64,000 bases of DNA from Planctomycetota bacterium. Its GTDB lineage: Bacteria; Planctomycetota; B15-G4; JADJEK01. Numbering within the stretch: the first letter of the stretch is position 1; each line of letters opens with the position of its first letter. Shown here piece after piece: positions 6,066-27,038 of this stretch. The notes under the pieces were generated by a model. That model was given only the letters and a program-made list of their open reading frames with translations. It was not told the DNA's origin and did not search any database. The DNA lies in assembly GCA_044225365.1 (NCBI GenBank), contig JBGAIQ010000012.1:32001-96000 (forward strand), read 5' to 3'. Position numbers and translations under genes: made by a program.

Positions 6066-6899
6066 ATGACGACTCAGCATCGGTTCATGCCGTTCCTACT
6101 CGCCTTGATCTGCGCGACGACGCTTCCGCTCGCATCGGGATCCACCCAGACCGTCGCGTGCGGTGTCCCGGGTGTCTCGGTCGTATATGATCCCGTCGTG
6201 AGCGCTGGCACTCTGGTCACGATGACGATCAACAATCGAAGCGCCTTCGACCTCTTGTTCACTTCGAATTGTTATCTCGGCGCAATTTACTATGGGTCGT
6301 CTTGCTCCGGGCTCCCGGCGTCGAAGGCTTACTGCGGAGCGGTGGATATTTTGCTGCCGAAGGACACTTCCGTGACCACGAACAGCGTGGCGTCAACTTA
6401 TGTCCTATCACCGGGTCCCTACTTCGTTCCGATCACCTACTCGGCCGGAGGCGTCGTCTTCAAGTGCTGCCTCCCGATCACGATCCAATCCGGGCTTCAG
6501 TTCTACGGTCCGAGCAAGCCCGGCACCGACGGAGTGAGTCCAAACCTCGGCGTGGTCCCGCAAACGGGTCCCAAGATCGGGACGAAGTTCCTGCTCGAAC
6601 TGAGATCACCCGCGAACGACGTTCCCGCGGTGCTCTTGATGGGAGGCGCAGCGGCTTCAGTCCCTCTTCCGTGGGGAACGCTCCTCGTGGCGACGACGCC
6701 TCCTTTCATTGCAGCGCCCCTCTTCATCGATCAACCGTTCCCATTTGGACCCGGGGGATCGGCCACCATCTCCTTCCAGCTTCCGAATGTTCCGGCGCTG
6801 GTCGGATTCACGGGTTTCGTGCAAGCCGTAGTTCAAGATCCCGGGGCGGCCGGAGGAGTCTCGCACACCAACGGCATGAAGATCACCGTCGGCATCTGA
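6066..6899 (+). CDS. Secreted hypothetical protein with conserved C-terminal putative sorting domain
   Basis: ATG 6066 with signal peptide (MTTQHRFMPFLLALICATTLPLASG); Cys-containing beta-rich N-domain; C-terminal YG..KPGTDGVSPNL...PLPWGTLLV...VQAVVQDPGAAGGVSHTNGMKITV. Confidence 0.8.
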   Translation: MTTQHRFMPFLLALICATTLPLASGSTQTVACGVPGVSVVYDPVVSAGTLVTMTINNRSAFDLLFTSNCYLGAIYYGSSCSGLPASKAYCGAVDILLPKDTSVTTNSVASTYVLSPGPYFVPITYSAGGVVFKCCLPITIQSGLQFYGPSKPGTDGVSPNLGVVPQTGPKIGTKFLLELRSPANDVPAVLLMGGAAASVPLPWGTLLVATTPPFIAAPLFIDQPFPFGPGGSATISFQLPNVPALVGFTGFVQAVVQDPGAAGGVSHTNGMKITVGI

Positions 6900-7140
6900 C
6901 CGCGTGCGCGCGGAGTCAGAAGGACCGTTCACGATTCGGACCGGCCTGCGACCGGCGACGAGCCGCGGATGCATCGTCGGACCTGCTCAACGGGTCCTTT
7001 CGCAGGGCGGTTCTGTACAGTGCGCTTCGGGATCGTTCGCCCACCACGCTCGGGCGCATCGCGCATTCGTTGGAATGCTCCAAGGCGGAACGAGCGACGG
7101 AACGGCTGGAGCTCGTGAAATGCATGCCTCTAGGAATCGA

Positions 7141-7929
7141 ATGAACGGTCTCACGTTCTTCTCGCTGCTGCGGACATGCGTGCTCTTGGTCCTGGGTTCC
7201 ATTCCATCTGCGTGCGTTGCGGGATCGAGCGAGACGACGCACCGCGAGATCGAGGTCCTTCTCCACGATGCGTCACGGGACCGCGACGTGCCGATCGTGA
7301 TCTACGAACCCGAATCCTCCCGACCCGCATCGCGCGTGGTCTTCATCAGCGGCGGCTATGGCGGGGAGACGACGGCGTACTCGTTCATTGCGCGCGATTT
7401 CACCGCACGCGGCGACCTCGTCGTGAGCATCCAGCACAACCTGCCTGGCGATGCGCCCATCGCGACGGAGGGCGATCTAAGAACGCTTCGAATGCCCGTC
7501 TGGCGACGAGGCGAAGCGACGATCCATTTCGTGAAGCATGAACTCGCGAGTCGATATCCACAGTTCGATTGGACGCGATTGATCCTGATCGGGCATTCGA
7601 ACGGCGGCGACATCTCGACGATCACGGCGACGGACGATCCCGCGCTCGTTTCGCATCTCATCACACTCGATCATCGTCGCGTGCCGCTGCCTCGATCGAT
7701 GGCGACGCGGGTCTTGTCGATCAGGGCCTCGGAGTACGAAGCTGACCCCGGTGTCTTGCCCGACGCGCGGGAAGCGGAGGAGTTCGGCATGACCATCGTT
7801 CGATTCGAGAACACGTCCCATATCGCGTTGTCGAACGTAGGGGACGAAGCCCTGAGGAAGTGCGTGCTCGACGTGATTCACGAATTCCTCGATCGCGATG
7901 CGCAAGCGACCGTGGCGCTCCCCCGATAG
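7141..7929 (+). CDS. Alpha/beta hydrolase (possibly exported)
   Basis: GHSNGG nucleophile elbow, SGGYGG oxyanion loop, C-terminal His (TSHIAL); start ATG 7141. Confidence 0.85.
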   Translation: MNGLTFFSLLRTCVLLVLGSIPSACVAGSSETTHREIEVLLHDASRDRDVPIVIYEPESSRPASRVVFISGGYGGETTAYSFIARDFTARGDLVVSIQHNLPGDAPIATEGDLRTLRMPVWRRGEATIHFVKHELASRYPQFDWTRLILIGHSNGGDISTITATDDPALVSHLITLDHRRVPLPRSMATRVLSIRASEYEADPGVLPDAREAEEFGMTIVRFENTSHIALSNVGDEALRKCVLDVIHEFLDRDAQATVALPR

Positions 7930-7941
7930 CCGATAGCAAAG

Positions 7942-8469
7942 ATGGCACCGCTTCGACGATCAAAGAAGAGAACCGAATCGAGCGCGGTCCGCGAGGCGCT
8001 TGCTCGGTTCGAATCCGCCAAGACGAAGGATGAGAGCGAGGATCGTCTCGACGACCTCGCCCGGATCGCCGGCCATCATGTTTCGGAGATCCTCGACTTG
8101 TACTCGCGAGGATCGAGGTCGGCGTTCGCGCTCGTCTGGTGCCTCCAAGGTGTACGAGAGCCACGGGTGGTCGAGTTCTTCGAGAGCGCCTTGCGCGATC
8201 GGGACGCGTTCATTCGCTGGGCGGCCGCCGAGGGGCTGAAGCACTGTGAGGACGAGCGGCTGATTCCCGTGTTCTGTCGTGCGCTTCGTGATCGCGCCCA
8301 TCTGGTGAAGGCTGTGGCGATCGAGTGGCTGGGAACACACGGAGACGATCGCGCCATCGCGCCGCTCGAGCGACTCTTCGAGCTAAGAAGTCTCGAGAAG
8401 AGCGCGCCCGGTCTCCTCACGGCGGCGGCCCGATCGATCTCGAGCATTCGCGCGCGCATGAGCGAGTGA
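7942..8469 (+). CDS. HEAT-repeat protein
   Basis: Repeated ALRDRDAFIRWAAAEGL / ALRDRAHLVKAVAIEWLG...RAIAPL (PBS-lyase-type HEAT). Confidence 0.8.
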   Translation: MAPLRRSKKRTESSAVREALARFESAKTKDESEDRLDDLARIAGHHVSEILDLYSRGSRSAFALVWCLQGVREPRVVEFFESALRDRDAFIRWAAAEGLKHCEDERLIPVFCRALRDRAHLVKAVAIEWLGTHGDDRAIAPLERLFELRSLEKSAPGLLTAAARSISSIRARMSE

Positions 8470-8601
8470 CGAAGGCGATCGCGATCTCCTTCGATGCAGA
8501 CGAGGAGCGAAGGCCATGCTATCGGGGTGCCGATCCCGCGATCCTCGATCGCGAAGACCGTGGGATCGAACCGTGAACCCCGAACGAAAAGGTAGAAGTC
8601 C

Positions 8602-9345
8602 ATGGACAAGCGACTCCAGAATCGAACCGCATTCGTCACGGGCGGGAGTCGTGGAATCGGCGCCGCGATCGTGAGAAGACTCGCGAGCGAGGGAGCGAGC
8701 GTGGCATTGACCTACGTCAGCCGTTCGGATCAGGCGGAAGACACTGCTCGTGCCGCGCGCGCCCTTGGCGTGAAGGCGATGGCGATCAAGGCGGACAGCG
8801 CGGAACCGATTGCCGTGGCTGCGGCCGTCGACCAGGCAGCGGAAGAATTCGGAGGGATCGACATCGCCGTCTGCAATGCGGGCATCGCCGTGATGGCGCC
8901 CGTCGAGCGATTCACTCTACAGGAGTTCGATCGTATGATCGCGATCAACATCCGCTCCGCGTTCGCCGTCATCCAAGCCGCGGCCCGACACATGAAGACG
9001 AACGGCCGCGCGATCACGATTGGGAGCTGCAATGCCGAACGCATGCCGTTCGCGGGCGGCGCAGTGTACGCGATGACGAAAGCCGCGCTCGTTGGGCTGG
9101 TGAAGGGCCTGGCGCGCGATCTCGGGCCGCGCGGAATCACGGTGAACAACATCCAACCGGGGCCGGTCGATACGGACATGAATCCCGCGAACTCGGAATT
9201 CGCAGCGACGCTCAAGACGTTGATGGCGCTCCCCCGCTACGGCGCCGCAGACGAGATCGCGGGAATGGTCGCATACCTTGCGAGTCAGGAAGCGGGTTTC
9301 GTCACGGGAGCCAGTCTGACGATCGACGGCGGGTTCACGGCGTAA
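8602..9345 (+). CDS. SDR family oxidoreductase (FabG/BdcA-like)
   Basis: TGGSRGIG, CNAG, YAMTK, VNNIQPGPVDTDMNP, IDGG. Confidence 0.95.
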   Translation: MDKRLQNRTAFVTGGSRGIGAAIVRRLASEGASVALTYVSRSDQAEDTARAARALGVKAMAIKADSAEPIAVAAAVDQAAEEFGGIDIAVCNAGIAVMAPVERFTLQEFDRMIAINIRSAFAVIQAAARHMKTNGRAITIGSCNAERMPFAGGAVYAMTKAALVGLVKGLARDLGPRGITVNNIQPGPVDTDMNPANSEFAATLKTLMALPRYGAADEIAGMVAYLASQEAGFVTGASLTIDGGFTA

Positions 9346-9391
9346 TCGATCACGGCTCTCATCACCGACTGCGGAGAGGTATGCTGATCCG

Positions 9392-9880
9392 ATGCGCTAC
9401 GCGATGCGACAAAAGCTGTTCTGTTTTGGGGACGACTTCACGATCCAGGACGAAGAAGGACGCGATCGCTACTATGTCGATGGGGCAGCGTTTAGCTTCG
9501 GCGATCGACTGTCGTTCGAGGACATGGAGAGACGAGAGCTCGCACACATCAGCGAGCGATTGCTTTCCTGGGGCCCGACGTACGAGATCCATCGTGGGGA
9601 TCGATTGGCTGCGGTCGTCAAGAAGTCGATCTTCACTCTGTTCAACTGCCGGTTCTCGGTGGACGTTCCCGGTCCCGACGATCTCGAAGCCGAGGGCAGC
9701 TTCACCGATCATGAATACACGATCCACCGCGCCGGACGCGTAGTCGCCACGGTCTCGAAGCGCTGGTTCTCGTTCACCGACTCCTATGGTGTCGACATCG
9801 CGAGCGGCGAGGACGATGTTCTCATTCTCGCGTGTACGGTCGTCATCGACATGGCGTGCCACCCGGATGAGAAGCGTTGA
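9392..9880 (+). CDS. LURP-one-related (tubby-like) protein
   Basis: MRQKLFCFGDDFTI...VDG..FSFGD...VSKRWFSFTDSYGVDI...VVIDM pattern typical of the LOR/YxjI family. Confidence 0.85.
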   Translation: MRYAMRQKLFCFGDDFTIQDEEGRDRYYVDGAAFSFGDRLSFEDMERRELAHISERLLSWGPTYEIHRGDRLAAVVKKSIFTLFNCRFSVDVPGPDDLEAEGSFTDHEYTIHRAGRVVATVSKRWFSFTDSYGVDIASGEDDVLILACTVVIDMACHPDEKR

Positions 9881-11659: not shown

Positions 11660-11721
11660 GGGCGCACGGCTGTGCGCCCGAATTCGGCAATCAAGCCGGG
11701 CAGACAGCCGTCTGCCCCTAC
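11656..11721. repeat. Inverted pair of GTAG-family REP elements
   Basis: GTAGGGGCGCACGGCTGTGCGCCC (11656-11679) and GGGCAGACAGCCGTCTGCCCCTAC (11698-11721); each is a hairpin with a GTAG foot. Further copies at 47202 and 56958. Confidence 0.85.
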
Positions 11722-13946
11722 GGGAGCTCGCGCGTGGCGACGGCGGATTGCACCGGATTCGGCGACGTTCCGGCCTCCGTTGCCTGGAAATGGAGCGTCA
11801 AACCCGAGAGGCCCGGAGGAACGCCGACGCTCCACGTCACGGTTCCTGCGGCATTCGCGATCCCGGTGAAGATCACGTATGCGAACGGATTGGGAAGGAC
11901 GGCGAGGTCGAGGTCGACCGCCCACGCCGGATCGGTGAGGGCGAAGGTCCCGATCGCCGTCGAGTAGAGAACGGCTTCGAACGCGCTGGCATCGCAACCG
12001 CCCAGGGTGAAATTCGCGGTGCTCCCCGCGGACAGCGAGAGAGGTAGATTGAGCGAGAGCGTCGACGGCTGCCCGATGGCGAACTCCGCGAGCAATCGAA
12101 CGTACGCCGCCTGCATCGGGATGTGACACTCCGTGAGCTCCCATGAGTTCTGCGGCCAATCCGCGTTCCAGTCCTTGAAGCTCTTCAGAACCGGCTGTCC
12201 CATGGGGGGCACGAGTGGCGGGCCCGCGTAGGCAGGATCGGGTGCGAACGATGGATTCACACCGCCGACCAAGTATCCGGGCGGTGGCCCGCTCGGCGAA
12301 GTGAGCGCGTTGTCGTAGATCGTGCCGTCCGCGAACCAGGCGGAGTAGAACTCGGGAAGGCTGTTCTCGGCGCCGAGCGACGCCATGTTCGTCAGATAAC
12401 AATAACCCGTGGGGTTCACTCCGTGGATGTAATGTAGGTAGTCCTCGGCCGCCGTGCGATAGAGGGCGGCATTCGGCGTATCGAGCCCGCGACGGTTCAT
12501 CGCCATGAACATCGAGCCCTCACGGCACTTGGTCCGATTGGAGCCCCAGGTGTGGTCCTGGTCGTAGAGGAATGCGCGATACGCGTCGCTCTGCCCTGTG
12601 AATTGCGCCAGGTGATCCGCACCCTTCATCAAGTTCGCGTACGTGGTGCGAATCGTTTGCGCGAGCGAGAGCGTCGCGCCCGGAGTTTCCGCGTATGTCA
12701 GGAGCGCTTCCTGCCAATCCTGCTCGAAGGGAGATGCCCATCCCCATTGGATCATGTGCGACGCATTCGCATTGCTCTCGACGAAAGTCTTGTACTTGGC
12801 GAGTTTCGTGGCGCGATACAAATGCACCGCGGCACGCATCCGGTTCATCTGTTGTTCGTAGGCCGAGTCCTCCGCGGCGGCGTTCTGGAATCCGGCATTG
12901 TCGTAGGCGGATGGGATCTGTGCGGGATGCGCTTCCAGCCAATTCCACGCACCGATGGCCGCAACGCGTAATTGCGCTCCAAAGGCCTGACTCGAGGCAT
13001 CGGGGCGAGCTTCGAAGTCCAGAGCGGCGCGCGCGAACGCGCCGCAGGCGGAGATCGTCGCCGAGGCCGTCGCCGGCGCGTAGCGTCGAGGAGCGGTGTC
13101 CGTGCTCGGTGGACTACCCGCCGCGAAATTCGTCACCGATACCTTGTGAAGCACCGATCCGTCGGGGTTCTGCATCTTCAGCATCCACGAGAGTTCGTAA
13201 CGGATCTCGTCGAGGATGTCGGGAACGCCGTTGCCGGACTCGGGAATGCCTTCGTCGTCGGGCCAGCCGAGCGGATCGATCTCGTACGCGCCGAGCAGAT
13301 CCTGCAACGCGTCGTCGGCGTAGTTGATGTACTTGTTGTAGTCCCCAGCGTCGTGCCAGCCGCCCGACAAGTCCTTCGATGTTGCGGGAACAGGATTGCT
13401 GACGAGCCGACAATCGAGGTCCTGTTGGCCGTGGAGATGGCACGCGGTGTCGGTCCACTTCGAACCCGTGAACGGAGTCGATTTCGGCGCTCCGCATCGT
13501 TGCTGGTAGTACATCTTCATCGCGGTTCGAAGGACGGAATCGTAGACGTCCTTGTCGATCGGGAAGTCCTCGGAGCGCGCCGCCGTCGCGGGATCGATCA
13601 CGTAGAAGACGCCGGGCGATTGAAAGGAACTGAAGTCGAACCACCAGACCTTGTCACCGGATTGCGAGTGCGTCGCTCCGGCTTTCCAGGGGATCGCTTG
13701 TCCGGAGAATACGACCGCGTCGTCGCTCGATCGCTTCACTTGGATCGTCGACGGCGACGTGTAGTTCGCGGGAGCGTCGTAGCCCGTTACGGGCGCACGG
13801 AAGATCGCCATCTTCGTCGCTCGGGGCCGATAGCCGAACGGATCGACGCGGACGTGAAGGTCGCTGGGGGCACCGGATGCCGTGCTTGCGAAGAATACGA
13901 TTAGGAACGAAGCGGCCAATGCACCACCGCGCGAAGACATGAGCAT
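11718..13946 (-). CDS. Glycoside hydrolase family 9 (N-terminal Ig-like domain + GH9 catalytic domain) with extra C-terminal domain
   Basis: GGAGG RBS before ATG 13946; signal peptide; YYQQRCG, GGWHDAGDYNKY, PDILDEIRYEL, SWELTE catalytic motifs. Confidence 0.9.
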   Translation of the reverse strand: MLMSSRGGALAASFLIVFFASTASGAPSDLHVRVDPFGYRPRATKMAIFRAPVTGYDAPANYTSPSTIQVKRSSDDAVVFSGQAIPWKAGATHSQSGDKVWWFDFSSFQSPGVFYVIDPATAARSEDFPIDKDVYDSVLRTAMKMYYQQRCGAPKSTPFTGSKWTDTACHLHGQQDLDCRLVSNPVPATSKDLSGGWHDAGDYNKYINYADDALQDLLGAYEIDPLGWPDDEGIPESGNGVPDILDEIRYELSWMLKMQNPDGSVLHKVSVTNFAAGSPPSTDTAPRRYAPATASATISACGAFARAALDFEARPDASSQAFGAQLRVAAIGAWNWLEAHPAQIPSAYDNAGFQNAAAEDSAYEQQMNRMRAAVHLYRATKLAKYKTFVESNANASHMIQWGWASPFEQDWQEALLTYAETPGATLSLAQTIRTTYANLMKGADHLAQFTGQSDAYRAFLYDQDHTWGSNRTKCREGSMFMAMNRRGLDTPNAALYRTAAEDYLHYIHGVNPTGYCYLTNMASLGAENSLPEFYSAWFADGTIYDNALTSPSGPPPGYLVGGVNPSFAPDPAYAGPPLVPPMGQPVLKSFKDWNADWPQNSWELTECHIPMQAAYVRLLAEFAIGQPSTLSLNLPLSLSAGSTANFTLGGCDASAFEAVLYSTAIGTFALTDPAWAVDLDLAVLPNPFAYVIFTGIANAAGTVTWSVGVPPGLSGLTLHFQATEAGTSPNPVQSAVATRELP

Positions 13947-15549: not shown

Positions 15550-15617
15550 GTGCATGGATCGGAGCGCTGAGTCGCTGCGCGATGGCGCAACGCGCCGATC
15601 AGCGTTAGATTCGGGCC

Positions 15618-17975
15618 ATGATCGGAATCTCCTTCTCCACTCTCGTCCTCATCTCCTTCATTTCGCCCGCGCCGGTTCTTCCGGCGGCTTCCGGGACGGC
15701 TCCCTCGGCGCTCGAGCGCGCGGGAGGGAATCGCTCCGAGATCGAGAAGGCTCTGACGACGGCGCCCGACGAACAGAAGTCGGCGATGAAGTGGCTCGTC
15801 GATCACATGCCCGAGGAGGATCTGCGGAAGCTCCCCGCGAGTTTCCTGCTCGGCAATTGTGACGAGGCATATCGAGCGTGGAAGGCCGCGCCGTGGCAGG
15901 AATGCGTCCCCGAGGACGTGTTCCTCGACGCGATCCTGCCCTACGCGAGCATCGACGAACGGCGCGACGATTGGCGCCATGACTTCCACGAGCGATTCAT
16001 GCCGTTCGTGATGGATGCGAAGACCGTCGCGCAAGCGACGACGATCCTCAATCGCGAGGTGTTCAAGACGACGGGCGTTCATTACTCGACGAAGCGACCG
16101 AAGGCCGATCAGAGCCCGTACGAGACGATCGAAGCGAAGCTCGCGTCCTGCACCGGACTCTCCGTCCTGCTGATCGATGCGTGTCGCGCGTGCGGGATTC
16201 CCGCGCGATTCGCGGGCACGCCGCTCTGGTCCGACGACAGCGGCAATCACTCGTGGGTCGAGGTCTGGGACGGCGCCTGGCATTTCACGGGCGCGGCGGA
16301 GCCGCCCGGTGATGGCGCGCTCGACAGCGCGTGGTTCGCGGGGCGTGCGGCGACGGCGACGACCGATGATCCGCGGCACGCGATCTACGCGGTCACCTGG
16401 CGCGAGTCGCCGATCTCGTTCCCCATGGTCTGGAAGCCGTGGGACAAGAGCGTCCGCGCGATCGACGTGACCGACCGCTACACGACCGCGGCGAAGAAGC
16501 CGGAACCCGGAATGGCGCGCGTTCGCTTCCGCGTCGTGGACAAGGCGGGTCGGGTCGCGACGAAGGTCACGGTGCAGGATGCGCAGCAGCTAAGCGGCAA
16601 GCCACTGTTCGAAGGCCTCTCGAAGGACGAGCGGTTCGACGCCAATGACCATCTGACGGCGATCCTGCCGATCGGTACGAAGGTGAGGATCGTCGTCGGC
16701 GGCAAGGAGTCCGACCAAACGATCGAGCGCGACGAGCAGCTCTTCGACTTCTCCCTCGACGATTCCAAGGAAGCGGCGGCCGTCGCTCCACCCTCGCCCG
16801 CGGTGAAGAGCACCGCGATCGCGAGCACCGCCGCGAGCGCGCTCGCCGCGTACCTCGAGAAGAACGGCACGGCGCAGCTCGGCGATCAGGACTTCGCGAA
16901 GGCGCAGATTCGCAAGTCCGAGGTCGACGGCATCCTCGACATCCTGTGGAAGCACCACGTCGCGACGATTCGCAAGGAGCGCGCGAAGGAAGTCGAGTCG
17001 CGCCTCATCGAGATCACCGGGCACAAGATGCCGTTCTGGTATCGCACGTTCGGGGAGAAACCGAAGAACGGACGCAGTCTCTACATCTCGATGCACGGCG
17101 GCGGCGGGGCGCCGAAGGAAGTGAACGATCAGCAGTGGGAGAATCAGAAGAAGTTGTACGCGCCCGACGAAGGGATCTACCTCGCACCGCGCGCGCCGAC
17201 CGATACCTGGAATTTATGGCACGAAGCCCATATCGACGCTTGCTTCGACCGCCTCATCGAGGATCTCATCGTCTTCGAGGACGTCGATCCCGATCGCGTG
17301 TACATCATGGGCTACAGCGCGGGCGGTGACGGCGTCTACCAACTCGCACCGCGAATTGCCGACCGACTCGCCGCCGCGGCGATGATGGCGGGCCACCCGA
17401 ACGAGACGCGGCCCGACGGACTGCGCAACATCGGCTTTGCCCTGCACATGGGCGCGAACGACTCCGCCTACGATCGCAACAAGATCGCCGCGCAGTGGAT
17501 CGAGAAGCTCGATGAACTGAGCAAGAGCGATCCCGGCGGTTACGTTCACGTCGGCGAACTCCATGCCGGCAAGGGCCATTGGATGGATCGCGAGGACAAA
17601 GTCGCCGTGCCGTGGATGGCGAAGTTCACGCGCGATCCTCGGCCGCTGAAAGTGGTGTGGCTGCAAGACGACGTCACGCATCGCCGCTTCTACTGGCTCG
17701 GAATGGATGATCCCAAGGGCGGCGAACGCGTCGTTGCGAAGCGCGGAGGTCAGACCTTCGAGATCCTCGAAGCCACCGGCGTGAGTACGTTGAGGATCTA
17801 TCTCGACGACATCATGGTCGACCTCGACGACGACGTGATCGTGACGTGGGGCGGCAAAGAAGTGTTCCGCGGCAAGGCCACCCGCAACATCGCGGAGATG
17901 TCCCGCACTCTCGACGAGCGAGGCGATCCGCACGGCGTCTACAGCGCCGAGATCACCGTGCACGCGCCCGATTGA
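15618..17975 (+). CDS. Secreted transglutaminase-like + alpha/beta-hydrolase (esterase/PHA-depolymerase-like) fusion
   Basis: Signal peptide; ASCTGLS...NHSWVEVWDGAWHF (transglutaminase-like Cys/His); SMHGGGG, MGYSAGG, GAND, KGHWM (Ser-Asp-His). Confidence 0.85.
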   Translation: MIGISFSTLVLISFISPAPVLPAASGTAPSALERAGGNRSEIEKALTTAPDEQKSAMKWLVDHMPEEDLRKLPASFLLGNCDEAYRAWKAAPWQECVPEDVFLDAILPYASIDERRDDWRHDFHERFMPFVMDAKTVAQATTILNREVFKTTGVHYSTKRPKADQSPYETIEAKLASCTGLSVLLIDACRACGIPARFAGTPLWSDDSGNHSWVEVWDGAWHFTGAAEPPGDGALDSAWFAGRAATATTDDPRHAIYAVTWRESPISFPMVWKPWDKSVRAIDVTDRYTTAAKKPEPGMARVRFRVVDKAGRVATKVTVQDAQQLSGKPLFEGLSKDERFDANDHLTAILPIGTKVRIVVGGKESDQTIERDEQLFDFSLDDSKEAAAVAPPSPAVKSTAIASTAASALAAYLEKNGTAQLGDQDFAKAQIRKSEVDGILDILWKHHVATIRKERAKEVESRLIEITGHKMPFWYRTFGEKPKNGRSLYISMHGGGGAPKEVNDQQWENQKKLYAPDEGIYLAPRAPTDTWNLWHEAHIDACFDRLIEDLIVFEDVDPDRVYIMGYSAGGDGVYQLAPRIADRLAAAAMMAGHPNETRPDGLRNIGFALHMGANDSAYDRNKIAAQWIEKLDELSKSDPGGYVHVGELHAGKGHWMDREDKVAVPWMAKFTRDPRPLKVVWLQDDVTHRRFYWLGMDDPKGGERVVAKRGGQTFEILEATGVSTLRIYLDDIMVDLDDDVIVTWGGKEVFRGKATRNIAEMSRTLDERGDPHGVYSAEITVHAPD

Positions 17976-17984: not shown

Positions 17985-18767
17985 CTACTTCCGGAGTCGA
18001 TGGGTATTGACAGCGGAGATCGCCGCCGCGGCGAGCGCGTTGTTCGAATTGCGCTCCGCGACGGCAGCCGCTTGCAGTCCGAGCGCCGCGAGTGCCACCT
18101 CGACCGTGCGACCCATCGCCGCGATCGAGGTGCGACGCAGGCACGCCTTCGCGCGTTCGGGGCCGATCTGCTCGACGATCGCGGTGACGGCGGAACCCGC
18201 AGCGAACGTCACGGCGTCGATCTCTCCCGCGAGGAGCGATTTCTCGAACGCCTCGATCGCGGTGAGCGGTGCGGCGACGTTCGAATAGACGACGACCTCG
18301 TCGACGGTCGCTCCGGCTTCGCGTAGCGCCACGGGGAGCACCGCGTCCGCGCGGTCGCCGCGCGCGACGAGCACTCGCACACCTCGCACTTGCCTCTCGA
18401 GTTCGCTCGCGAGCGTACGGCCATCCGTGGCGACGACCGCGGCGCTGAAGCCTCGTGCTTTCAGAGCTTCCGCCGTCTTCTTCCCGACCGCCGCGAACCG
18501 CACTCGCGAGAGTCCTCCGCGATCGATCGGATCGGCGAGGAGCGTGTCGACGCCGTTGACGCTCGTAACGACGACGTAGTGAAAACTCGCAATGCCACGG
18601 CGCGCGGCGGCGAACGCAGCGAGGTCGGGAGCAGGGCCGATCACCGACGTCGGGTGTAGAACGACACGTGCACCGAGCGCCTCGATCGCGCTCTTCAGCT
18701 CCGCGGCGGAGTGGGCGGGGCGCGTCACGGCGACGATGGGTGCGTTCGAACTCATGGTGGGCGTCAT
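17985..18767 (-). CDS. hemD: Uroporphyrinogen-III synthase
   Basis: VAVTRP, VVTSVNGV, AAVGKKTAEAL, EVVVYSN, VTFAAGSAV, AAMGRTV. The start codon is approximate. Confidence 0.88.
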   Translation of the reverse strand: MTPTMSSNAPIVAVTRPAHSAAELKSAIEALGARVVLHPTSVIGPAPDLAAFAAARRGIASFHYVVVTSVNGVDTLLADPIDRGGLSRVRFAAVGKKTAEALKARGFSAAVVATDGRTLASELERQVRGVRVLVARGDRADAVLPVALREAGATVDEVVVYSNVAAPLTAIEAFEKSLLAGEIDAVTFAAGSAVTAIVEQIGPERAKACLRRTSIAAMGRTVEVALAALGLQAAAVAERNSNNALAAAAISAVNTHRLRK

Positions 18768-18960
18768 TCTCTCTGCTTCGCGGGACGTCTGGAGATTCGC
18801 GGTTCCGCGAATCATGCACGCTGGATGTGATGTTACTCCGGGCTGCTCGAATTCGTGCGAAGGATCACGGAGCCGGCGGAGCCCGTACTGTCCCGTCGCG
18901 TCATTCTGGAGTACGCTGTTCGTGGAAGACCGCCGAGAAGTCAACTCTGGAGATTCATCG

Positions 18961-20760
18961 ATGCAGTTTCTGGTTCTGGCGACGTCGCTCTGCGCCCTGG
19001 GGACGGTGAGTACGGGGACTGCGGGCGGACTCTCGATCGTCGCGCCAGGCGGTCAAGGCGGAGTGGGCGCATATCCCGTAGCGACGCCCACGACGAATTG
19101 TGTGCCGCAGGAACTCGAGGACAAGATCCACGCGGCCCTCGTGCGGTGGCAAGCGGCGCATCCCGGCACGCCGGAGAAGCAGCTCGCGGGATCGCCGCTC
19201 CTCGCCTCGACGTCGCTCGGGGCCGTCGCTTCCGAGGACGGGATCAACGGCAATTTCGTCGACCTCGATCCGACGTTCGGGTTCACGGACTTCTCCTGCC
19301 ACGATTTCACCTACGACGGTCACGCTGGCCACGACATCGGATTGCGCAGCTGGGCCGAGATGCAGATCGGCGTGCCGGTGTTCGCGGTGCGCGACGGCGT
19401 CATCGCGTTCGCGCAGGACGGCTTCCCGGACATGAACAATCAGCCCGGGGCGGACGACGGCAACTACGTGATCGTCGATCACGGTGGCGGCCAATTCGGT
19501 TGGTACTTCCATCTCAAGAAGAACAGCGTCGCGTTCGGCATCGGCCAGAGCGTGAAGCAGGGCGATCAGATCGGTCTCGCCGCATCGTCGGGATACAGCT
19601 ACGGGCCGCACTTGCATTTCCAGATCGAGCAGAACAATGCGGTCGTCGAGCCCATGGCGGGGCCGTGCGGGAACAAGACGAGCCTCTTCGCGCATCAAGA
19701 GCCTCTCGTGCTCGAACCACGTGCGATCGACTTCGGCGCGACGACGACCGATCTCTTCCAGTTCGGCCAACCCCTGCCGCTCGAACAGCCGAAGCAGGGA
19801 CAGATCCCACTGAACGCGGGATTCGTCTACTATTGGATGCAGCTCATGAACGTGCCGGCGAACGCGCAGGTCCACGTGCAGTTCCAGCGGCCGAATGGAA
19901 CGATCGCATTCGATACGACGTTTGGATTCGGTAACCCAACGCTCCTGCGCTACTGGCCGGGCTTCCTTTACTGGTGGGTCGCGGACATGCAGACGACGGT
20001 CGGCACCTGGCACTACCTCGTCGATTTCAACGGCACGAACGTCATCAACGCGCCGATCGACGTGGTCACGACCGTCAATCCCAACGCCAATCACGTCCCC
20101 GAGGCGGTGACGCCGACCTTCGATCCGCCGACGCCCTCGCCGAACATGGCGCTGTTCTGCTCGGTCAACGGCTCGCCGATCGTCGACGACCGCGACTGGG
20201 ACGTCGTTCGTTATCATTACGTTTGGAAGGTGAACGGATCGACCGTGCGCGACGTCGTTACAGCGGGGCGTCGCGATGCGCTCGCTCGGAACAAGTTCAG
20301 CGCGGGCCAGACCGTGTCCTGCACCGTCACGCCGAACGACGGCAAGATCGACGGTCCCGTCGCGACGGCGAGCGCGATCGCGGCCGCGGATCCGTGGACT
20401 TCGATCGGCGGCGGCAAGTACGGCACCAACGGTGTTCCCTATCTTTCGGGCACCGGCTCGCTCGCGCCGCTCTCGTCGGGCACATTGTCGCTCGCGCAGG
20501 CCAAGACCAACTCGCTCGCGCTGCTCTTCCTCGGCGTCGCGGCCGGCAACATCCCGTTCCTCGGCGGAACGCTCGTGCCCTTCCCGATCCTCACCTCGAT
20601 TTCGCTCAACACCGGTCCGACGGGCGGATTCACGCTGCCCTTCACGTGGCCCTCCGGCGTGCCGAGCGGAACGGTCGTCACCCTGCAGATGTGGATCCAG
20701 GATCCGTCGGCATGGCTCGGCGCTGCGTCGAGCAACGGTGTGAAGATCGTCGCGCCATGA
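18961..20760 (+). CDS. Secreted M23 family metallopeptidase with Ig-like domains and conserved C-terminal domain
   Basis: Signal peptide; HAGHDIG (HxxxD), GNYVIVDH, YFHL, GPHLHF (HxH); C-terminal GTNGVPYL...IPFLGGTLV...QMWIQDPSAWLGAASSNGVKIV. Confidence 0.9.
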   Translation: MQFLVLATSLCALGTVSTGTAGGLSIVAPGGQGGVGAYPVATPTTNCVPQELEDKIHAALVRWQAAHPGTPEKQLAGSPLLASTSLGAVASEDGINGNFVDLDPTFGFTDFSCHDFTYDGHAGHDIGLRSWAEMQIGVPVFAVRDGVIAFAQDGFPDMNNQPGADDGNYVIVDHGGGQFGWYFHLKKNSVAFGIGQSVKQGDQIGLAASSGYSYGPHLHFQIEQNNAVVEPMAGPCGNKTSLFAHQEPLVLEPRAIDFGATTTDLFQFGQPLPLEQPKQGQIPLNAGFVYYWMQLMNVPANAQVHVQFQRPNGTIAFDTTFGFGNPTLLRYWPGFLYWWVADMQTTVGTWHYLVDFNGTNVINAPIDVVTTVNPNANHVPEAVTPTFDPPTPSPNMALFCSVNGSPIVDDRDWDVVRYHYVWKVNGSTVRDVVTAGRRDALARNKFSAGQTVSCTVTPNDGKIDGPVATASAIAAADPWTSIGGGKYGTNGVPYLSGTGSLAPLSSGTLSLAQAKTNSLALLFLGVAAGNIPFLGGTLVPFPILTSISLNTGPTGGFTLPFTWPSGVPSGTVVTLQMWIQDPSAWLGAASSNGVKIVAP

Positions 20761-21896
20761 TTGCCTTTTCGCTCGCGCTGCTCGGTCTCGGCATCGTCCT
20801 CGACGAAACGCCTTCCTCCCGCTTCGTCGTCGAGACGATCGCGGCGGATTCGGATTTCGAAGCGAGCGGCGTCGGCGACATCGACAAGGACGGGGATCTC
20901 GACATCGTGTGCGGCGATCGCTGGTACGCGGCGCCCGATTGGAAGCCGCACGGCATCGCCAAGATCGAGAAGCGCGATGGCTATCGCCTCGACTTCTCGA
21001 ACGTGCTGATGGACATCGACGGCGACGGCTACCTCGACATCGTGTCGTGCAATTGGCACGAGGCGTCCGTCCTGTGGCGACAGAACCCGGGAAAGGACGT
21101 GAGCACGAGCGACACGTGGGCGACTCACGTCATCGACAAACCCGGCAACATGGAGACCGCGATCGCGGTGGATGTCGATGGGGATGGCAAGCTCGACTTC
21201 TTGCCCGACGTCGCGCAGAAGACCGTGTGGTACCGCGTCGAGAACGGCACGCTCGTCCCGCACGAGATCTCCGCGACGGTCGGCGGGCACGGCATCGGCT
21301 TCGGCGACGTGAACGGTGATGGTCGGAGCGATGTGCTGAAGCCGACGGGATGGTTCGAAGCGCCCACCGATCGCATTCATGGCGAGTGGAAGCTCCACGC
21401 GGAATGGAGCCTTGGCGCCGTCGGGATCGGCATCCTCGTGAACGACTTCAACGGCGATGGCCTGTCCGACGTGTTCACTGCACTGGGCCACGATTACGGC
21501 ACGTTCTGGCTCGAGCAATCGAAGTCCGAACCGAAGTGGATTCGCCACGACATCGACAAGGACTGGTCGCAGGGCCACGCGCTGCGGCTCGTCGATCTCG
21601 ACGGCGATCGTCAAATGGAAGTTCTCACGGGCAAGCGGAAGTACGCGCACGAAACCGATCCGGGTGCCGAGGACGATCTCGTCGTCTTCTCGTACGCCTT
21701 CGACCGCTCGAAGAGCACGTTTCGACGTGACACGATCGTTCGCGGCAAGTCGGTTGGACTCGGCCTCGAGCCGACGATCGTCGATATCGATCGCGACGGC
21801 GATCTCGACATCGTCGCACCGGGGAAGAGTGGGCTGTACTGTTTGATCGCCAAGTCGCAGGATTCGACGAAACCGGCCAAGGTAGGGGGATCATGA
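20757..21896 (+). CDS. FG-GAP/VCBS repeat beta-propeller protein
   Basis: ATG 20757 overlapping the upstream TGA; about seven DxDxDGxxD repeats (DIDKDGDLD, DIDGDGYLD, DVDGDGKLD and others). Confidence 0.9.
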   Translation: MIAFSLALLGLGIVLDETPSSRFVVETIAADSDFEASGVGDIDKDGDLDIVCGDRWYAAPDWKPHGIAKIEKRDGYRLDFSNVLMDIDGDGYLDIVSCNWHEASVLWRQNPGKDVSTSDTWATHVIDKPGNMETAIAVDVDGDGKLDFLPDVAQKTVWYRVENGTLVPHEISATVGGHGIGFGDVNGDGRSDVLKPTGWFEAPTDRIHGEWKLHAEWSLGAVGIGILVNDFNGDGLSDVFTALGHDYGTFWLEQSKSEPKWIRHDIDKDWSQGHALRLVDLDGDRQMEVLTGKRKYAHETDPGAEDDLVVFSYAFDRSKSTFRRDTIVRGKSVGLGLEPTIVDIDRDGDLDIVAPGKSGLYCLIAKSQDSTKPAKVGGS

Positions 21897-24445
21897 ACTC
21901 GACGACTTCGATTGGAACACGTGTCCGCATTTCGGCGAGCCTTCTCGCGGGCGCATACGCTGTCTGCGCGGATGCGACGAGTGGTGAGTCGATCTATCCG
22001 GTAGACCACTATTCTGGAGCGGGGCTCGCGGTGGGGACCGCGGACTTGGACAACGACGGCGATCCCGATCTCGTCGGAGTCGGTGGTTCGGGGCTGACAT
22101 CGCTCAGGAACGATGGAAACAGCCACTTCACGCCCGTCTTCGCGTTGACCGATCAGTACTACGGCTCGATCGAGATCGCCCGGCTCGACGCCGATCCCTA
22201 TCCCGACGCGTTGATCCACACGTTCAACGAGATCATCGGGATTCGCGGCGACGGCGCGGGTGGCTTCCTTCCCGGAATCGTTCTGCTGGTGGGGACCGAC
22301 ACCGGAAATCCGAAGGCGGGCGACTTCAACGAAGACGGCAAGCAAGATTTCGTCGTGGGAACGATGACGGCGGGTTCAGGCCTTCGCGTCTTCTTCGGCA
22401 CGCCCGTCGGACCGGTCAATCCACCGGTCACCATTGCGGGTGGCGGCGGTGGCGCCGTGCATACCGAAGTCCGCGATTTCAATGGCGATGGCCATCTCGA
22501 TGTCATCGATGTCGGCCATTCGCTGAACCTCTGGCTCGGCGACGGCGCCGGACACTTCACGCTCACCTCGAACGTCCCGCTCGGTCTCGCGTCGCACGTT
22601 GCGGTCGCCGACCTCGATCAGGATGGCAAACTCGACGTGCTCCTCGACGCGCTACTCCTCGGGAACGCGGTGCAGTTCTTCAAGGGCAACGGGCTCGGTG
22701 GGTTCTTTCCGCCTCTCAGCACGTCGTTGCCGAACACGGCGACGTATCGTCCGGCGGACATCGACAATGACGGCAAGATCGACCTGGTAGCGGCCGACTC
22801 CGCATTCGTGAACGGCGTGCGCATTCATCGCTCGACGGGCCCCATGCAGTTCGCGACCGCAGTCGACATCCCGCTCGCGAAGTTCGTCGCCAGCGCATTT
22901 CCCACCGACGTGGATCTCGACGGAAGCGTGGATCTCGTCCTTGGGCTCGGTGTCGGTATCGCGGTTTCCCGCGGACGTGGAAACGGGGATTTCGATCACG
23001 ACGAGATCCTCGCCAAGCCATCGGTACTCCAGCTCGCAACCGGCGACGTGAACGACGACGGATACGACGATCTCGTCGCGACTCGCGTCGGAAGTCTGCT
23101 CGGCGTCAGCCTCGGCCAGGCGAACGGTTCGTTCGCGTCGTTCGTCGATCTCCCCGACGGAATCAACGTCGCCCTTTCGCTCGAACTCGGCGACCTCGAT
23201 CTCGACGGCGATCTCGACGCGGCGACTTCGTCCGGTTTCGGGCTGCATTCATTGCTCGGCGACGGCACCGGATCCTTCTCGCCGGGCGTGAGTCAGCTCG
23301 CCGGTACGATGGGTCTGAACGGATTTGGTCTCGCGGATCTCGATGCGGATGGTCGGCTCGATGTGGGGTTCTCCACGACCGACACCGCGGGTCATGCGAC
23401 GCTGTCTTCGGTCCAATACTCGAAGGGTCAGGCCGGTGCGTCCTTCTCGTTCCCGACGACCTTGTACACGAGCTCGCAACCGGGGACGAGTCTGCTGGTC
23501 GACGATCTGAATGGCGACGGCGCGGCCGATCTCGTATTCGCGCTGTCGACCGGACCCCTTCAATACCTTGCCTCCAATGGTACCGGCGGATTCCAGTCGG
23601 CGCAGTCGCTCGCGTTTCCCGGAGTGACCTTTCGTTCGATCACCGGCGGCGATTTGAATGCAGATGGTGTTCGCGACTTCGCGGGCTTCGACTCCGTGGG
23701 AGATGGCGTCCGAGTGTGTCTCGGCAACGGGACCGGCTTCGTTGCGGGTCCGGTGACGCCGTCGAGCTGGAATCCATCGGAGACGCTGTCGCTGCGCAGC
23801 GGCGATGCGGATGGCGACGGCCGTCTCGACGTCCTGTTGCTCGGTGATTTCGCGGGTTCGACCTCCAATGGCGTCGAGATCCTCCGCGGGAACGGAGCGG
23901 GCGCACTGCAGCCGCTGGATCGGTTCGATGCCGCGCTCAAGACTCACGCTGCGATCCTGCGTCCGTTCGACGCCGATCACGACGGCCGACTCGACGTTGC
24001 CTTCGCATCCTCGGCGTCGAACGGCGTGGAGATCCTGCGCGGCGCGCTTCCGGATTACTTCTCGTACTCCGGCGCCGGCTGCATCGGCAGCGGCGGATTC
24101 ACTCCGCGCTTGCGCCTCGATGGGGTCGCGACGCCCGGCGGCTCCGCGACGCTGTCGCTCGAGAACGCGAAGGGCGGGGCGACCGCGCTCCTCTTCAGCG
24201 GCGTGACGCCGGGCAACGTGCCGCTCCCCGGCGGTTGTCCGTTGCTCGTCTTCCCGCTGCTGCCGATCGTGTTCAACCTGCCGCTGTCGGGAACGCAACC
24301 CGGCGAGGGCAGCTTCCATCTCGGCGGACCGCTTCCTGGTTCCCTCGGTTCCGGATCGGTCTTCTATCTACAGGCGATCGTGATCGATCCGGGCGCGCCG
24401 TTCGGCTTCGCCGCGACGAATCGCGCGCAGATCAGCGTTCATTGA
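21893..24445 (+). CDS. Large FG-GAP repeat protein (double propeller) with conserved C-terminal domain
   Basis: Signal peptide then ESIYPV; about 14 D-x-N/D-x-DG-x-x-D repeats; C-terminal YSGAGCIGSGGFTPRL...QAIVIDPGAPFGFAATNRAQISVH. Confidence 0.9.
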   Translation: MNSTTSIGTRVRISASLLAGAYAVCADATSGESIYPVDHYSGAGLAVGTADLDNDGDPDLVGVGGSGLTSLRNDGNSHFTPVFALTDQYYGSIEIARLDADPYPDALIHTFNEIIGIRGDGAGGFLPGIVLLVGTDTGNPKAGDFNEDGKQDFVVGTMTAGSGLRVFFGTPVGPVNPPVTIAGGGGGAVHTEVRDFNGDGHLDVIDVGHSLNLWLGDGAGHFTLTSNVPLGLASHVAVADLDQDGKLDVLLDALLLGNAVQFFKGNGLGGFFPPLSTSLPNTATYRPADIDNDGKIDLVAADSAFVNGVRIHRSTGPMQFATAVDIPLAKFVASAFPTDVDLDGSVDLVLGLGVGIAVSRGRGNGDFDHDEILAKPSVLQLATGDVNDDGYDDLVATRVGSLLGVSLGQANGSFASFVDLPDGINVALSLELGDLDLDGDLDAATSSGFGLHSLLGDGTGSFSPGVSQLAGTMGLNGFGLADLDADGRLDVGFSTTDTAGHATLSSVQYSKGQAGASFSFPTTLYTSSQPGTSLLVDDLNGDGAADLVFALSTGPLQYLASNGTGGFQSAQSLAFPGVTFRSITGGDLNADGVRDFAGFDSVGDGVRVCLGNGTGFVAGPVTPSSWNPSETLSLRSGDADGDGRLDVLLLGDFAGSTSNGVEILRGNGAGALQPLDRFDAALKTHAAILRPFDADHDGRLDVAFASSASNGVEILRGALPDYFSYSGAGCIGSGGFTPRLRLDGVATPGGSATLSLENAKGGATALLFSGVTPGNVPLPGGCPLLVFPLLPIVFNLPLSGTQPGEGSFHLGGPLPGSLGSGSVFYLQAIVIDPGAPFGFAATNRAQISVH

Positions 24446-24447
24446 GC
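24089..24447 (+). repeat. ~360-bp direct repeat, copy 1 (C-terminal domain coding sequence)
   Basis: Aligns ungapped with 26682-27040; about 23 mismatches by manual count. Confidence 0.9.
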
Positions 24448-24497
24448 GGTTGGAGCGGCGCGCGTCTTGGACTCGCGCCCAAAGATGGTTCTCGCCC

Positions 24498-27038
24498 ATG
24501 AGTCGAATTCGAATCGATTCGGTCATCGTTTCCATCCTCGCCGCGATCCTGGCGCCGGCGACCTTCGCGGAATCGATCTACCCCGTGCCGTTCCATGCGG
24601 GACAAGGCACCGCGATCGCATCCATCGATCTCGACGGCGACGGCGACGTGGATCTCGCGACCGCTGGAGTGAATGGACTCCTGACGTTGACGAATGACGG
24701 CACCGGCAACTTCATTGCCGGGCCGAAGCAGACGAGCAATCTGAATCTCTTCACCGTCACCCTCGCAAAGCTGAACGCCGACAACGCTCCAGATGCACTC
24801 GTCCGGAATTTCACCTCGATCTTGGCCTATCCCGGGAACGGCGCGGGCGGTTTCCTGAATCCTCTCACGCTGCTCGTGGGGACGCAGTACGGGTCACCGC
24901 GGACCGGAGATTTCAACGAGGACGGTCGTACCGACGTCGTCGTCGGTCATTCAGCGGCCGGAGTCGGCCTCACGGTCTTCTTCTCGACCGCTGCGGGCCC
25001 GGTGAATCCACCCGTCGTGTTCCCTGGAGGCGGTGGTGGCGGTGGCCCGATGATCGTCTCCGACATCAACGGCGATGGTCATCTCGACGTGATCGACGTC
25101 GGAAACACCATCAACACCTGGCTCGGAGACGGATTCGGCCACTTCGTGAACACGTTCAACTCGGGCGCTTCCGGGACCGTGATCTACGCACTGCTCGTCG
25201 ATTTCGATCACGACGGGAAGCTCGATCTCCTCTACGAAGCGCTCACCGGCGGCACGAGTGAGCTGTTTCGGCGCGGGGATGGCGCCGGTGGATTCGCGCC
25301 CGCCATCGCGACTTCGATGGTGGCGATGCAGTACGTCGCCATCGATTTCGATCACGACGGCGTCACGGACCTCATCGGGATCGACACGAACAAGCCCGGC
25401 ATCGCGGAGCTGTTTCGCGCCGTAGGACCCGTTCAATTCGCGCCGGCGATCGATCTGCCGGTCGCGCAGAGTATTTCTTCCATCGCACCGATCGACGTCG
25501 ATGCCGACGGCAATCTCGATCTCGTGATCGCGATTCCGAACGGTGTCTGCGTGCTCCGCGCCAAGCCGAGCGGCGGATTCGTTTCGAACGAGTCCTTCGG
25601 TCCCATGAACGGCAAGAGCATTGCGACGGGCGATGTGAACGACGACGGATACGAGGATCTCGTCACCGTACAGGGCACGGTCCAGCTCGGAGTCAGCCTC
25701 GGTTCGAGCGGCGCACCTTTTCCTCCGTTCGTCTTCGGACCGACGGTTTCCATTTGGCCCGCGCTCTTTCTCGATCTCGGCGACCTCGATCTCGATGGCG
25801 ATCTCGACGCCGCCGTGATCGCGACCAACGAGCTCGATGTCCTTCACGGCGATGGCACCGGCGGTTTCTCGCTCGCGCAGGCGCAGACCCAATTCGGCCA
25901 GGTCTACTCGCTCCTCCATGCGCGGTTGATCGATTCCACCTCGGACGGCGTCCCGGACCTGACGTATGCCTATTCGATCAATGGCGGGCATGCGGGCTTC
26001 TTCTCGGGAGTCGTCCTCGCACGCGGAATCGCCGGCGGCACGCTTGGAGTCGCGACCCCGATCCTGACGGGAAGCCAGGAGTTCACGGACCTCCTCGTCT
26101 CCGATCTCAACGGGGACGGCGCGGCCGACTTCGTCGTCGCGCTCCCCAGCGGAACTCCGCTGTACGTCCGGACCGACGGGATCGGCGGATTCCTCGCGCC
26201 TCTGCCGATTCCCGTTTCGGGAGCTGCTGTACGCAAGATCGCGAGCGGCGACGTGAATGGCGATGGGAAGCAGGATCTCGTCTTCGCGAGCTCGAATCTC
26301 CCGCTCGGGCTGCTCACGATGCTCGGCACGGGATCGGGATTCGCGTTCGGTTCGATCACGGGCTTGCTGTCGTCGCCGAGCGGAAATCTGACTCTCGCCT
26401 GTGCCGATGTGAACGGGGACGCGAGGCTGGACGTCCTCGCTCTCGGAGACTACGGAACTCCGATTCTCGAGGTCCTGCGGGGGGATGGCGCTGGCAACTT
26501 CGCGGATTCCGTTCCCTTCGCGGTCGCCTCGAACGTGACCGCCTCGAGACTTCACGTGTTCGACGCGGAGCACGACGGTCGCGTCGACGTCGTGTTCGCG
26601 GCGCCCGCGAGCAGCCGCGTCGAGACCCTGCGCAATGCACTTCCCGACTTCTTCGACTACGCGGGTGCCGGCTGCGCGGGGAGCGGCGGATTCGTTCCGC
26701 GCTTGCGCCTCGATGGCGTCGCAACGCCCGGCGGCTCGGCGACGCTGTCGCTCGAGAACGCGAAGGGCGGGGCGACCGCGCTCCTCTTCACCGGCGTGAC
26801 GCCGGGCAACGTGCCGCTCCCCGGCGGTTGCCCGTTGCTCGTCTTCCCGCTACTGCCGATCGTGTTCAACCTGCCGCTGTCGGGAACGCAACCGGGCGAA
26901 GGCAGCTTCCATCTCGGCGGACCGCTGCCCGGCTCCCTCGGTTCGGGATCGGTTTACTACATGCAGGCGATCGTGATCGATCCGGGCGCGTCGTTCGGCT
27001 TCGCCGCGACGAATCGCGCGCAGATCAGCGTGTACTGA
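24498..27038 (+). CDS. Large FG-GAP repeat protein, tandem paralogue of 21893..24445
   Basis: ATG 24498; same architecture (ESIYPV, collinear repeats) and a near-identical C-terminal domain. Confidence 0.9.
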   Translation: MSRIRIDSVIVSILAAILAPATFAESIYPVPFHAGQGTAIASIDLDGDGDVDLATAGVNGLLTLTNDGTGNFIAGPKQTSNLNLFTVTLAKLNADNAPDALVRNFTSILAYPGNGAGGFLNPLTLLVGTQYGSPRTGDFNEDGRTDVVVGHSAAGVGLTVFFSTAAGPVNPPVVFPGGGGGGGPMIVSDINGDGHLDVIDVGNTINTWLGDGFGHFVNTFNSGASGTVIYALLVDFDHDGKLDLLYEALTGGTSELFRRGDGAGGFAPAIATSMVAMQYVAIDFDHDGVTDLIGIDTNKPGIAELFRAVGPVQFAPAIDLPVAQSISSIAPIDVDADGNLDLVIAIPNGVCVLRAKPSGGFVSNESFGPMNGKSIATGDVNDDGYEDLVTVQGTVQLGVSLGSSGAPFPPFVFGPTVSIWPALFLDLGDLDLDGDLDAAVIATNELDVLHGDGTGGFSLAQAQTQFGQVYSLLHARLIDSTSDGVPDLTYAYSINGGHAGFFSGVVLARGIAGGTLGVATPILTGSQEFTDLLVSDLNGDGAADFVVALPSGTPLYVRTDGIGGFLAPLPIPVSGAAVRKIASGDVNGDGKQDLVFASSNLPLGLLTMLGTGSGFAFGSITGLLSSPSGNLTLACADVNGDARLDVLALGDYGTPILEVLRGDGAGNFADSVPFAVASNVTASRLHVFDAEHDGRVDVVFAAPASSRVETLRNALPDFFDYAGAGCAGSGGFVPRLRLDGVATPGGSATLSLENAKGGATALLFTGVTPGNVPLPGGCPLLVFPLLPIVFNLPLSGTQPGEGSFHLGGPLPGSLGSGSVYYMQAIVIDPGASFGFAATNRAQISVY

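Follow-up and report, generated by a model that had tools for sequence, protein, structure and literature searches.

The C-terminal domains (CTDs) of the type IX secretion system (T9SS) of Bacteroidota (type A, Por_Secre_tail, PF18962/TIGR04183; type B, TIGR04131) are immunoglobulin (Ig)-like β-sandwiches that end Sec-exported proteins, one in each; they are carried by diverse cargo, including proteases, glycosidases, and adhesin-like propellers, and number tens to hundreds per genome within one lineage. The PEP-CTERM/exosortase, MYXO-CTERM, and GlyGly-CTERM/rhombosortase systems likewise place a common C-terminal tag on unrelated exported proteins of one lineage, in large paralogous families, and these tags are short and tripartite, with a motif, a transmembrane helix, and a basic tail. 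SLH domains and the dockerin–cohesin pair are terminal modules that can occupy either end of varied exported enzymes and attach them noncovalently to a common partner in the envelope. Generic β-sandwiches are also found on secreted enzymes as Ig-like or carbohydrate-binding module (CBM) accessory domains, for example, the N-terminal Ig-like domain of the glycoside hydrolase family 66 (GH66) dextranase. In this study, we describe a domain, hereafter the tail domain, that has points in common with these systems. It ends four exported proteins encoded in a 64,000-nucleotide stretch of a Planctomycetota bacterium (contig JBGAIQ010000012.1, positions 32,001 to 96,000; hereafter the window) and recurs, once per protein and at one end, on unrelated proteins throughout the source genome, where we suggest that it may act as a folded docking or targeting module.

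A reading of the window from its letters (hereafter the sequence-only reading) had proposed that four proteins with three types of passenger share a C-terminal domain at 6501–6899, 20395–20760, ~24059–24445, and ~26652–27038. These tails indeed lie at the 3′ ends of their open reading frames (ORFs) and are homologous; in an alignment of the four, identity between passenger types is 32–33%. The first protein is a small Cys-containing exported protein (6066–6899, plus strand; 277 residues from the likely start ATG at 6066, within the ORF 5940–6899), which has a signal-peptide-like hydrophobic N-terminus and bears the tail domain at ~6483–6896. It matched the final profile described below over ORF residues 194–318 of 324 (E 2.2e-19), and no Pfam or NCBIfam family was found on the whole protein. 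The second is an M23 peptidase (18961–20760, plus strand; 599 residues from the likely start ATG at 18961, within the ORF 18592–20760; Peptidase_M23 in Pfam, E 1.2e-19) with a tail of the cysteine-free subtype at ~20386–20757 (ORF residues 609–720 of 725, final profile E 1.3e-30). The recorded 599-residue form is identical over the scored region (the tail, residues 595–722), and five M23 relatives show 60–70% identity across this tail. The third and fourth are FG-GAP propeller proteins encoded by tandem paralogues on the plus strand, namely, protein 1 (21893–24445; 850 residues; FG-GAP_3 in Pfam, E 2.2e-56) with a tail of the two-cysteine subtype at ~24050–24442 (final profile E 2.7e-33) and protein 2 (24498–27038; 846 residues from the ATG at 24498, within the ORF 24450–27038; FG-GAP_3, E 3.3e-53) with a tail at ~26643–27035 (final profile E 2.1e-33). 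The passengers of the two paralogues are 32–65% identical per 60-residue block, and their last ~135 residues are 87–97% identical. This pattern suggests that the tail has been homogenized between diverged tandem paralogues, either by gene conversion or because the tail was recently exchanged as a module. Pfam and NCBIfam name the window passengers (Peptidase_M23 and FG-GAP_3) and assign no family to the tails of the same proteins.

To determine the extent of the family, a hidden Markov model (HMM) was built from the four window tails and used to search the 42,117 stop-to-stop ORFs of at least 80 residues in the source genome (6.53 Mb in 103 contigs, ~64% G+C, 94% complete). This HMM matched 137 ORFs at E≤1e-3, and after four rebuilds of the profile, the set was stable at 186 ORFs with exactly one domain each (186 domains in 186 ORFs). 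The same profiles gave no match at E≤1e-3 in a reversed ORF set used as a control. Because the matches in the genome are plentiful and the reversed set gives none, the tail-domain family is real. The tail genes also group together, with 40 successive pairs no more than two genes apart against ~16 expected at random by a rough estimate. The motif given in the sequence-only reading was recovered as the best-conserved profile columns, G2, G7, G10, P13, L15, L42, G45, P52, G56, Q98, D103, G109, S/T113, and N114. Conservation was highest at G2, G77 (174/183), and Q98 (181/185), followed by P64, P86, D103, P13, and L15; D103 is kept in 149 of 178 copies and N114 in 125 of 163. Q98 is the most conserved non-glycine column and corresponds to Q107 of the modeled tail (window 24053–24442). 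Judging from the periodicity of its strand, it is in phase with the outward-facing residues, and it could clamp the Gly-rich N-terminal segment or form a functional site.

The position of the domain within its proteins was nearly uniform. In 156 of the 186 ORFs, the domain ends within 10 residues of the stop codon, and in a further 22, it ends 11–30 residues from it, giving 178 C-terminal copies; the domain is never in tandem and never between other domains. Of 164 full-length C-terminal copies, 117 have 5–6 residues between the end of the profile and the stop codon, and these residues form the last β-strand, so the protein stops where the fold stops. No tail has a sortase-type hydrophobic C-terminal end, in keeping with the earlier remark that a transmembrane segment is lacking there. 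The claim that the domain is always last holds within the window and fails genome-wide, because in seven of the 186 ORFs, the domain follows the signal peptide immediately, so that it opens the mature protein and precedes the passenger. Two of these passengers are FG-GAP propellers, and two are PETase-like copies that are nearly identical and lie at contig ends; the others are a metallo-β-lactamase fold, a lamin-tail domain, and one protein without a family. The order signal peptide, domain, and metallo-β-lactamase was found as a single stop-free frame in three other genomes, G001 (57% identity), G009 (54%), and G013 (48%, from a different family), and from these sequences, we conclude that the N-terminal order was not created by misassembly. 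The N-terminal copies span at least three sequence subtypes, and the placement therefore arose more than once.

Several individual cases were also inspected. The metallo-β-lactamase part of C24:31191-32465, a protein tagged at its N-terminus, has a paralogue on another contig, G000:C78:121176-122006 (−), which is 67% identical, with the match starting at residue 148. This paralogue does not belong to the 186 tail ORFs, so this passenger occurs both with the domain and without it. An eighth non-C-terminal case, G000:C82:19433-20149 (+), retains just the second half of the domain, after which come 116 Arg-rich residues of read-through, and is probably a decayed tail gene. Short "tail-only" proteins in the databases were mostly gene fragments (eight inspected); P0014 (173 residues), the sole such case among the eight, looks like a complete signal peptide, short linker, and tail domain with no passenger.

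The tail proteins look exported. Under a strict signal-peptide rule, which called for a start codon among the first 130 codons, charge in the n-region, a hydrophobic core of 10 residues, and an AxA-like site, 118 of the 186 tail ORFs were positive compared with 543 of 3,210 other ORFs of at least 250 residues. This rule overlooks real cases, such as the window M23 protein, whose hydrophobic core is not preceded by a charge, and eight tail ORFs are truncated by contig ends. A looser rule was satisfied by 159 of the 186, a figure that has no control set. The passengers fall into 76 BLAST clusters, which bears out the unrelated cargo claimed from the window, and the largest cluster is that of the FG-GAP propellers (70/186). 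Pfam searches with 40 cluster representatives identified hydrolases (S8 and M10 peptidases, a PETase-like esterase, and a metallo-β-lactamase, in addition to the M23 peptidase of the window), redox proteins (GSDH, an MtrC-like multihaem cytochrome with Big_9, and CCP_MauG), propeller and repeat proteins other than FG-GAP (Kelch, PQQ, SBBP/DUF7948, and PD40), and CHRD, lamin-tail (LTD), and β-helix proteins; 15 of the 40 had no family. Database relatives add acid phosphatase, β-lactamase, BNR, and laminin-G passengers, and those relatives that are named are called either "hypothetical protein" or after the passenger.

The tail of FG-GAP protein 1 (window 24053–24442) was modeled using AlphaFold2 with an alignment of 40 paralogous tails. 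The model had a mean predicted local distance difference test score (pLDDT) of 96.3 and was all-β with ten β-strands; according to it, the tail is an independently folding Ig-like β-sandwich of ~125 residues. A Foldseek search against the Protein Data Bank (PDB) gave no specific match (best E 3.6e-4, template modeling score ≤ 0.5). The best VIA-align match was an Ig domain of LILRB4 (Z 8.3), followed by dextranase N-domains and macroglobulin domains, and Z values of 7–8 are typical of models without a real match. The CTD of PorU (6za2_B residues 1054–1156) was among the matches (Z 6.4, root mean square deviation 3.4 over 95 residues), at the same level as dozens of unrelated Ig-like chains. 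A profile search of the PDB sequences yielded nothing meaningful, only an antibody light chain (E 0.0064). A prediction of two tail copies together scored 0.01 against a mark of 0.42, which speaks neither for nor against self-association. The cysteines of the family co-vary as two pairs: columns 5 and 56/57 hold both residues in 76 domains, neither in 104, and one in 6, and a Cys 6–7 residues upstream of the profile start together with column 18/20 gives both in 42, neither in 78, and one in 26. These pairs would fit up to two disulfides formed outside the cytoplasm.

No Pfam family was placed on the tail when 45 whole proteins and 40 isolated tails were scanned, and no curated CBM, Big, PKD, or FN3 family matched it in Pfam, NCBIfam, or the PDB sequences. 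The sequence-only reading had named a match to a known CBM or Ig family as evidence against it, and these searches produced none. We found no description of the domain in the literature, although an account in a subscription journal or under another name is possible. In a profile search of 1.84 billion cluster representatives (50% identity), 17,980 matched at E≤1e-3 and 8,017 at E≤1e-10, so that the large family predicted from the window is seen both in the 186 ORFs of this genome and in public data. In the best 150 of the 17,980, the domain ends no more than six residues from the protein end (150/150). The nearest 30 ESM Atlas clusters are all "hypothetical protein," have no Pfam 38.1 family, and are commonest in Planctomycetota, and a search for related loci with a single tail retrieved only two, one from a Phycisphaeraceae metagenome-assembled genome and one from a Planctomycetota metagenome-assembled genome. 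Among the matches listed (up to 150 per genome), the domain was found in 21 of 21 genomes of the nearest relatives. It was present in 35 of 35 genomes at the class level (at least 80% completeness, four families) and in 65 of 301 genomes of a phylum sample. Sixty of these 65 had at least seven of at most 14 scored candidates, and the other five had one or two matches each, which may be noise or contamination. Presence was nearly all-or-none by family: for example, f9 (8/8) and f15 (6/6) were positive throughout, whereas f8 (0/16), f16 (0/16), f25 (0/11), and f28 (0/11) were negative. The restriction to a lineage proposed for the window domain is thus evident, and the domain is a lineage trait of one Planctomycetota branch, retained across several classes.

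Taken together, these features describe an unnamed Ig-like domain that would fold extracytoplasmically and of which many unrelated Sec-exported proteins of one Planctomycetota branch each carry a single copy at one terminus. We propose, with slightly more confidence than an even chance, that the folded domain serves, at either end of a protein, as a docking or targeting module and gives its carriers a common destination in the cell envelope. The module would bind a single partner common to all carriers, which would be a protein of the envelope or a polymer at the surface. Since the domain is also found immediately after the signal peptide, the fold would be recognized rather than a linear C-terminal peptide. 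Both the common partner and the surface location are inferred. Docking in the manner of SLH domains or dockerin–cohesin pairs is favored by analogy; the fold and size of the tail are different, and the SLH, dockerin, and cohesin families gave no match in Pfam scans of the tail proteins or of the tails.

Several observations weigh against this proposal. No gene family was enriched near the tail genes when the 756 genes within three genes of them were grouped into BLAST clusters; the best uncorrected p value was 0.03 and came from pairs of 2/2. Across the 301 genomes of the phylum sample, four candidates (the window secretin, secretins generally, exosortase, and a transglutaminase-like gene) do not track the domain. 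Since the structural matches are only generically Ig-like, the fold says nothing about function. The covariation of the cysteines is confounded by the split into cysteine and cysteine-free subfamilies, and 48 of the 186 domains have no Cys at all. In addition, di-haem peroxidases, GSDH, and M23 peptidases are usually periplasmic, and therefore, the destination could be the periplasm rather than the surface.

The main rival explanation is that the tail is a secretion signal like the T9SS CTD, in which case a dedicated outer-membrane translocon would recognize the folded tail, export the cargo, and possibly also remove the tail and link the cargo to a polymer at the surface. The resemblance is considerable: an Ig-like sandwich placed at the very C-terminal end of 178 of 186 ORFs and finishing 5–6 residues past the profile end; one tail per protein on Sec-dependent hydrolase, adhesin, and propeller cargo; tens to more than 100 copies per genome in a restricted lineage; and the CTD region of PorU among the structural matches, although dozens of unrelated Ig-like domains score equally well. 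By contrast, there is no detectable sequence similarity to T9SS CTDs, since none of the 40 tails matched the relevant Pfam (E≤10) or NCBIfam (E≤1) models, and the tail has ~125 residues compared with the 75 positions of the T9SS Pfam model and up to two cysteine pairs. Por_Secre_tail (PF18962) had no match in the genome, and the control genomes were silent too. SprA_N, PorP_SprF, and GldM_1st likewise gave no match in the 94%-complete genome, although all 14 of the 14 control genomes were also below the cut-off, so that absence is not proven, and no candidate translocon co-occurs with the domain among the secretins that were tested. The tail is N-terminal in seven ORFs, with one arrangement kept in three other genomes, whereas we know of no T9SS CTD at an N-terminus. 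These conserved N-terminal placements favor the docking module over a T9SS-like signal, which we consider unlikely. The PEP-CTERM type of tag is different again, because the tail is a folded β domain of 125 residues with no C-terminal helix.

A second rival explanation holds that the tail is a ligand-binding or adhesive module, similar to a CBM or lectin, which would hold proteins on an external polysaccharide, particle, or prey surface and not on the cell's own envelope. β-Sandwich accessory domains that end secreted enzymes are often CBMs; the structural matches include GH66 dextranase N-terminal Ig-like domains (8iu8_A, Z 7.5), a glycogen-binding CBM, and a chitin-binding domain; many passengers are hydrolases; and a binding module can occupy either end, as the tail does. 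However, no known CBM or Ig family matches the tail, and a substrate-specific CBM would not explain its presence on FG-GAP propellers (70/186), cytochromes, peroxidases, M23 peptidases, and CHRD proteins. Ig-like and CBM accessory domains are usually specific to a family of enzymes and are often internal or tandem (most of them do occur in tandem or between other domains), whereas the tail is single and terminal on 76 passenger clusters. This diversity of cargo makes a substrate-binding module unlikely, and we regard the explanation as improbable. Least probable of all is that the tail has no shared partner and is a passive end-cap or a folding or stability module spread by domain shuffling and gene duplication, as the generic fold, the lack of a partner or recurrent neighbor in our searches, and the partial origin of the expansion in one paralogous group (FG-GAP, 70/186) would allow, because a neutral spacer would not be expected to keep a single terminal position on 76 passenger clusters and across classes, and because the near-invariant polar residues Q98, D103, and N114 and the homogenization of tails between diverged paralogues indicate constraint beyond a hydrophobic core.

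The candidate partners were each followed through the phylum sample. Phylogenetic profiling is reportedly the approach through which the PEP-CTERM system was described (PMC1569441). The sequence-only reading had mentioned the secretin of the window as a possible conduit while noting that nothing in the sequence links it to the tail, and the latter remark proved sound, as the distribution of the secretin does not follow that of the domain. This secretin gene (Secretin and STN in Pfam) lies at 37745–40228 on the minus strand in a cluster resembling those for Tad or type IV pili, together with T2SSE (40149–41297), TadE/G-like (43470–45098), and T2SSF (51195–52241) genes assigned by Pfam. It was rejected as a conduit: its closest orthologues beyond its own family are in the tail-negative families f70, f44, f42, and f6, and no match at E≤1e-30 was found in the tail-positive families f4 (0/2), f9 (0/8), f15 (0/6), and f22 (0/2). 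The closest orthologues (38–53% identity) are patchy in distant families of the phylum, and most genomes of its own family have weaker matches of about E 1e-53 to 1e-60; such a pattern fits a pilus or secretion cluster that has moved horizontally. Secretins in general are present in 299 of the 301 genomes, and the source genome has 13 secretin genes.

Exosortase was rejected in the same way. Exosortase_EpsH was detected in 130 of the 301 genomes, yet in only two of five f1 and one of nine f3 genomes, all of which are tail-rich. The source genome has one PEP-CTERM match (PF07589) and one ORF that fits a crude rule of motif, helix, and basic residues, neither of which is a tail protein. A short gene of the exosortase family was observed at G000:C45:3095-3556 (+) (Exosortase_EpsH, E 1.3e-19). 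The transglutaminase-like gene of the window (15609–17972), which adjoins the M23 gene, was tested because the Gln of the tail is invariant; it was set aside as well, because full-length orthologues occur in the tail-negative families f52, f81, f50, f75, and f87 and none was found at E≤1e-15 in seven of nine tail-rich f3 genomes. Of other export machineries, the type II secretion components T2SSL and T2SSK had no match in the genome and were positive in control genomes, and the Slam/SlipAM model had no match in the genome, with the control genomes equally silent.

A more divergent copy of the domain had also been attributed to the glycoside hydrolase family 9 (GH9) enzyme of the window (11718–13940, minus strand; 740-residue form on record; Glyco_hydro_9, E 2.8e-52, and CelD_N in Pfam). 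Its C-terminal ~130 residues (11721–12110, minus strand) were missed by the profile at default settings and reached E 5.4e-4 only with the HMMER filters off, and hhalign gave a probability of 7.7% for the single sequence and 25.7% over 82 colinear columns for a three-sequence profile, only two homologues with this tail being found. The region has neither the Gly-rich N-terminal segment nor the D-P...S/T-N motif. With these values, membership is not established, and the GH9 tail is a possible distant relative of the family. Two other window genes relate to envelope glycans: a Wzx-like polysaccharide flippase gene (27057–28649, minus strand) immediately follows the FG-GAP pair on the downstream side, and a PMT_2-type glycosyltransferase gene (45724–47385, minus strand) within the Tad-like region is, like the flippase gene, an envelope glycan gene near tail genes.

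A more novel reading is that the tail marks a new sorting pathway of Planctomycetota: the Ig-like end-module, whose sequence resembles no known sorting domain, would direct at least 100 Sec-exported proteins per genome to the surface, its fold being recognized at either end by machinery with nothing detectable in common with T9SS, exosortase, or classical type II secretion. We offer this reading tentatively, as one that is somewhat unlikely to hold. Approximately 4% of the genes of this bacterium (186 of ~4,400, crudely called) carry a domain that has no description in Pfam, NCBIfam, or the PDB. A curated model of the domain would, even without a mechanism, name the ends of ~18,000 "hypothetical" clusters and offer a simple prediction of exported proteins. 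If the domain is an address or anchor tag, it would define the set of surface or secreted proteins in a branch of Planctomycetota that is widespread and for the most part uncultured, and it would point to a sorting mechanism not yet known in this phylum.

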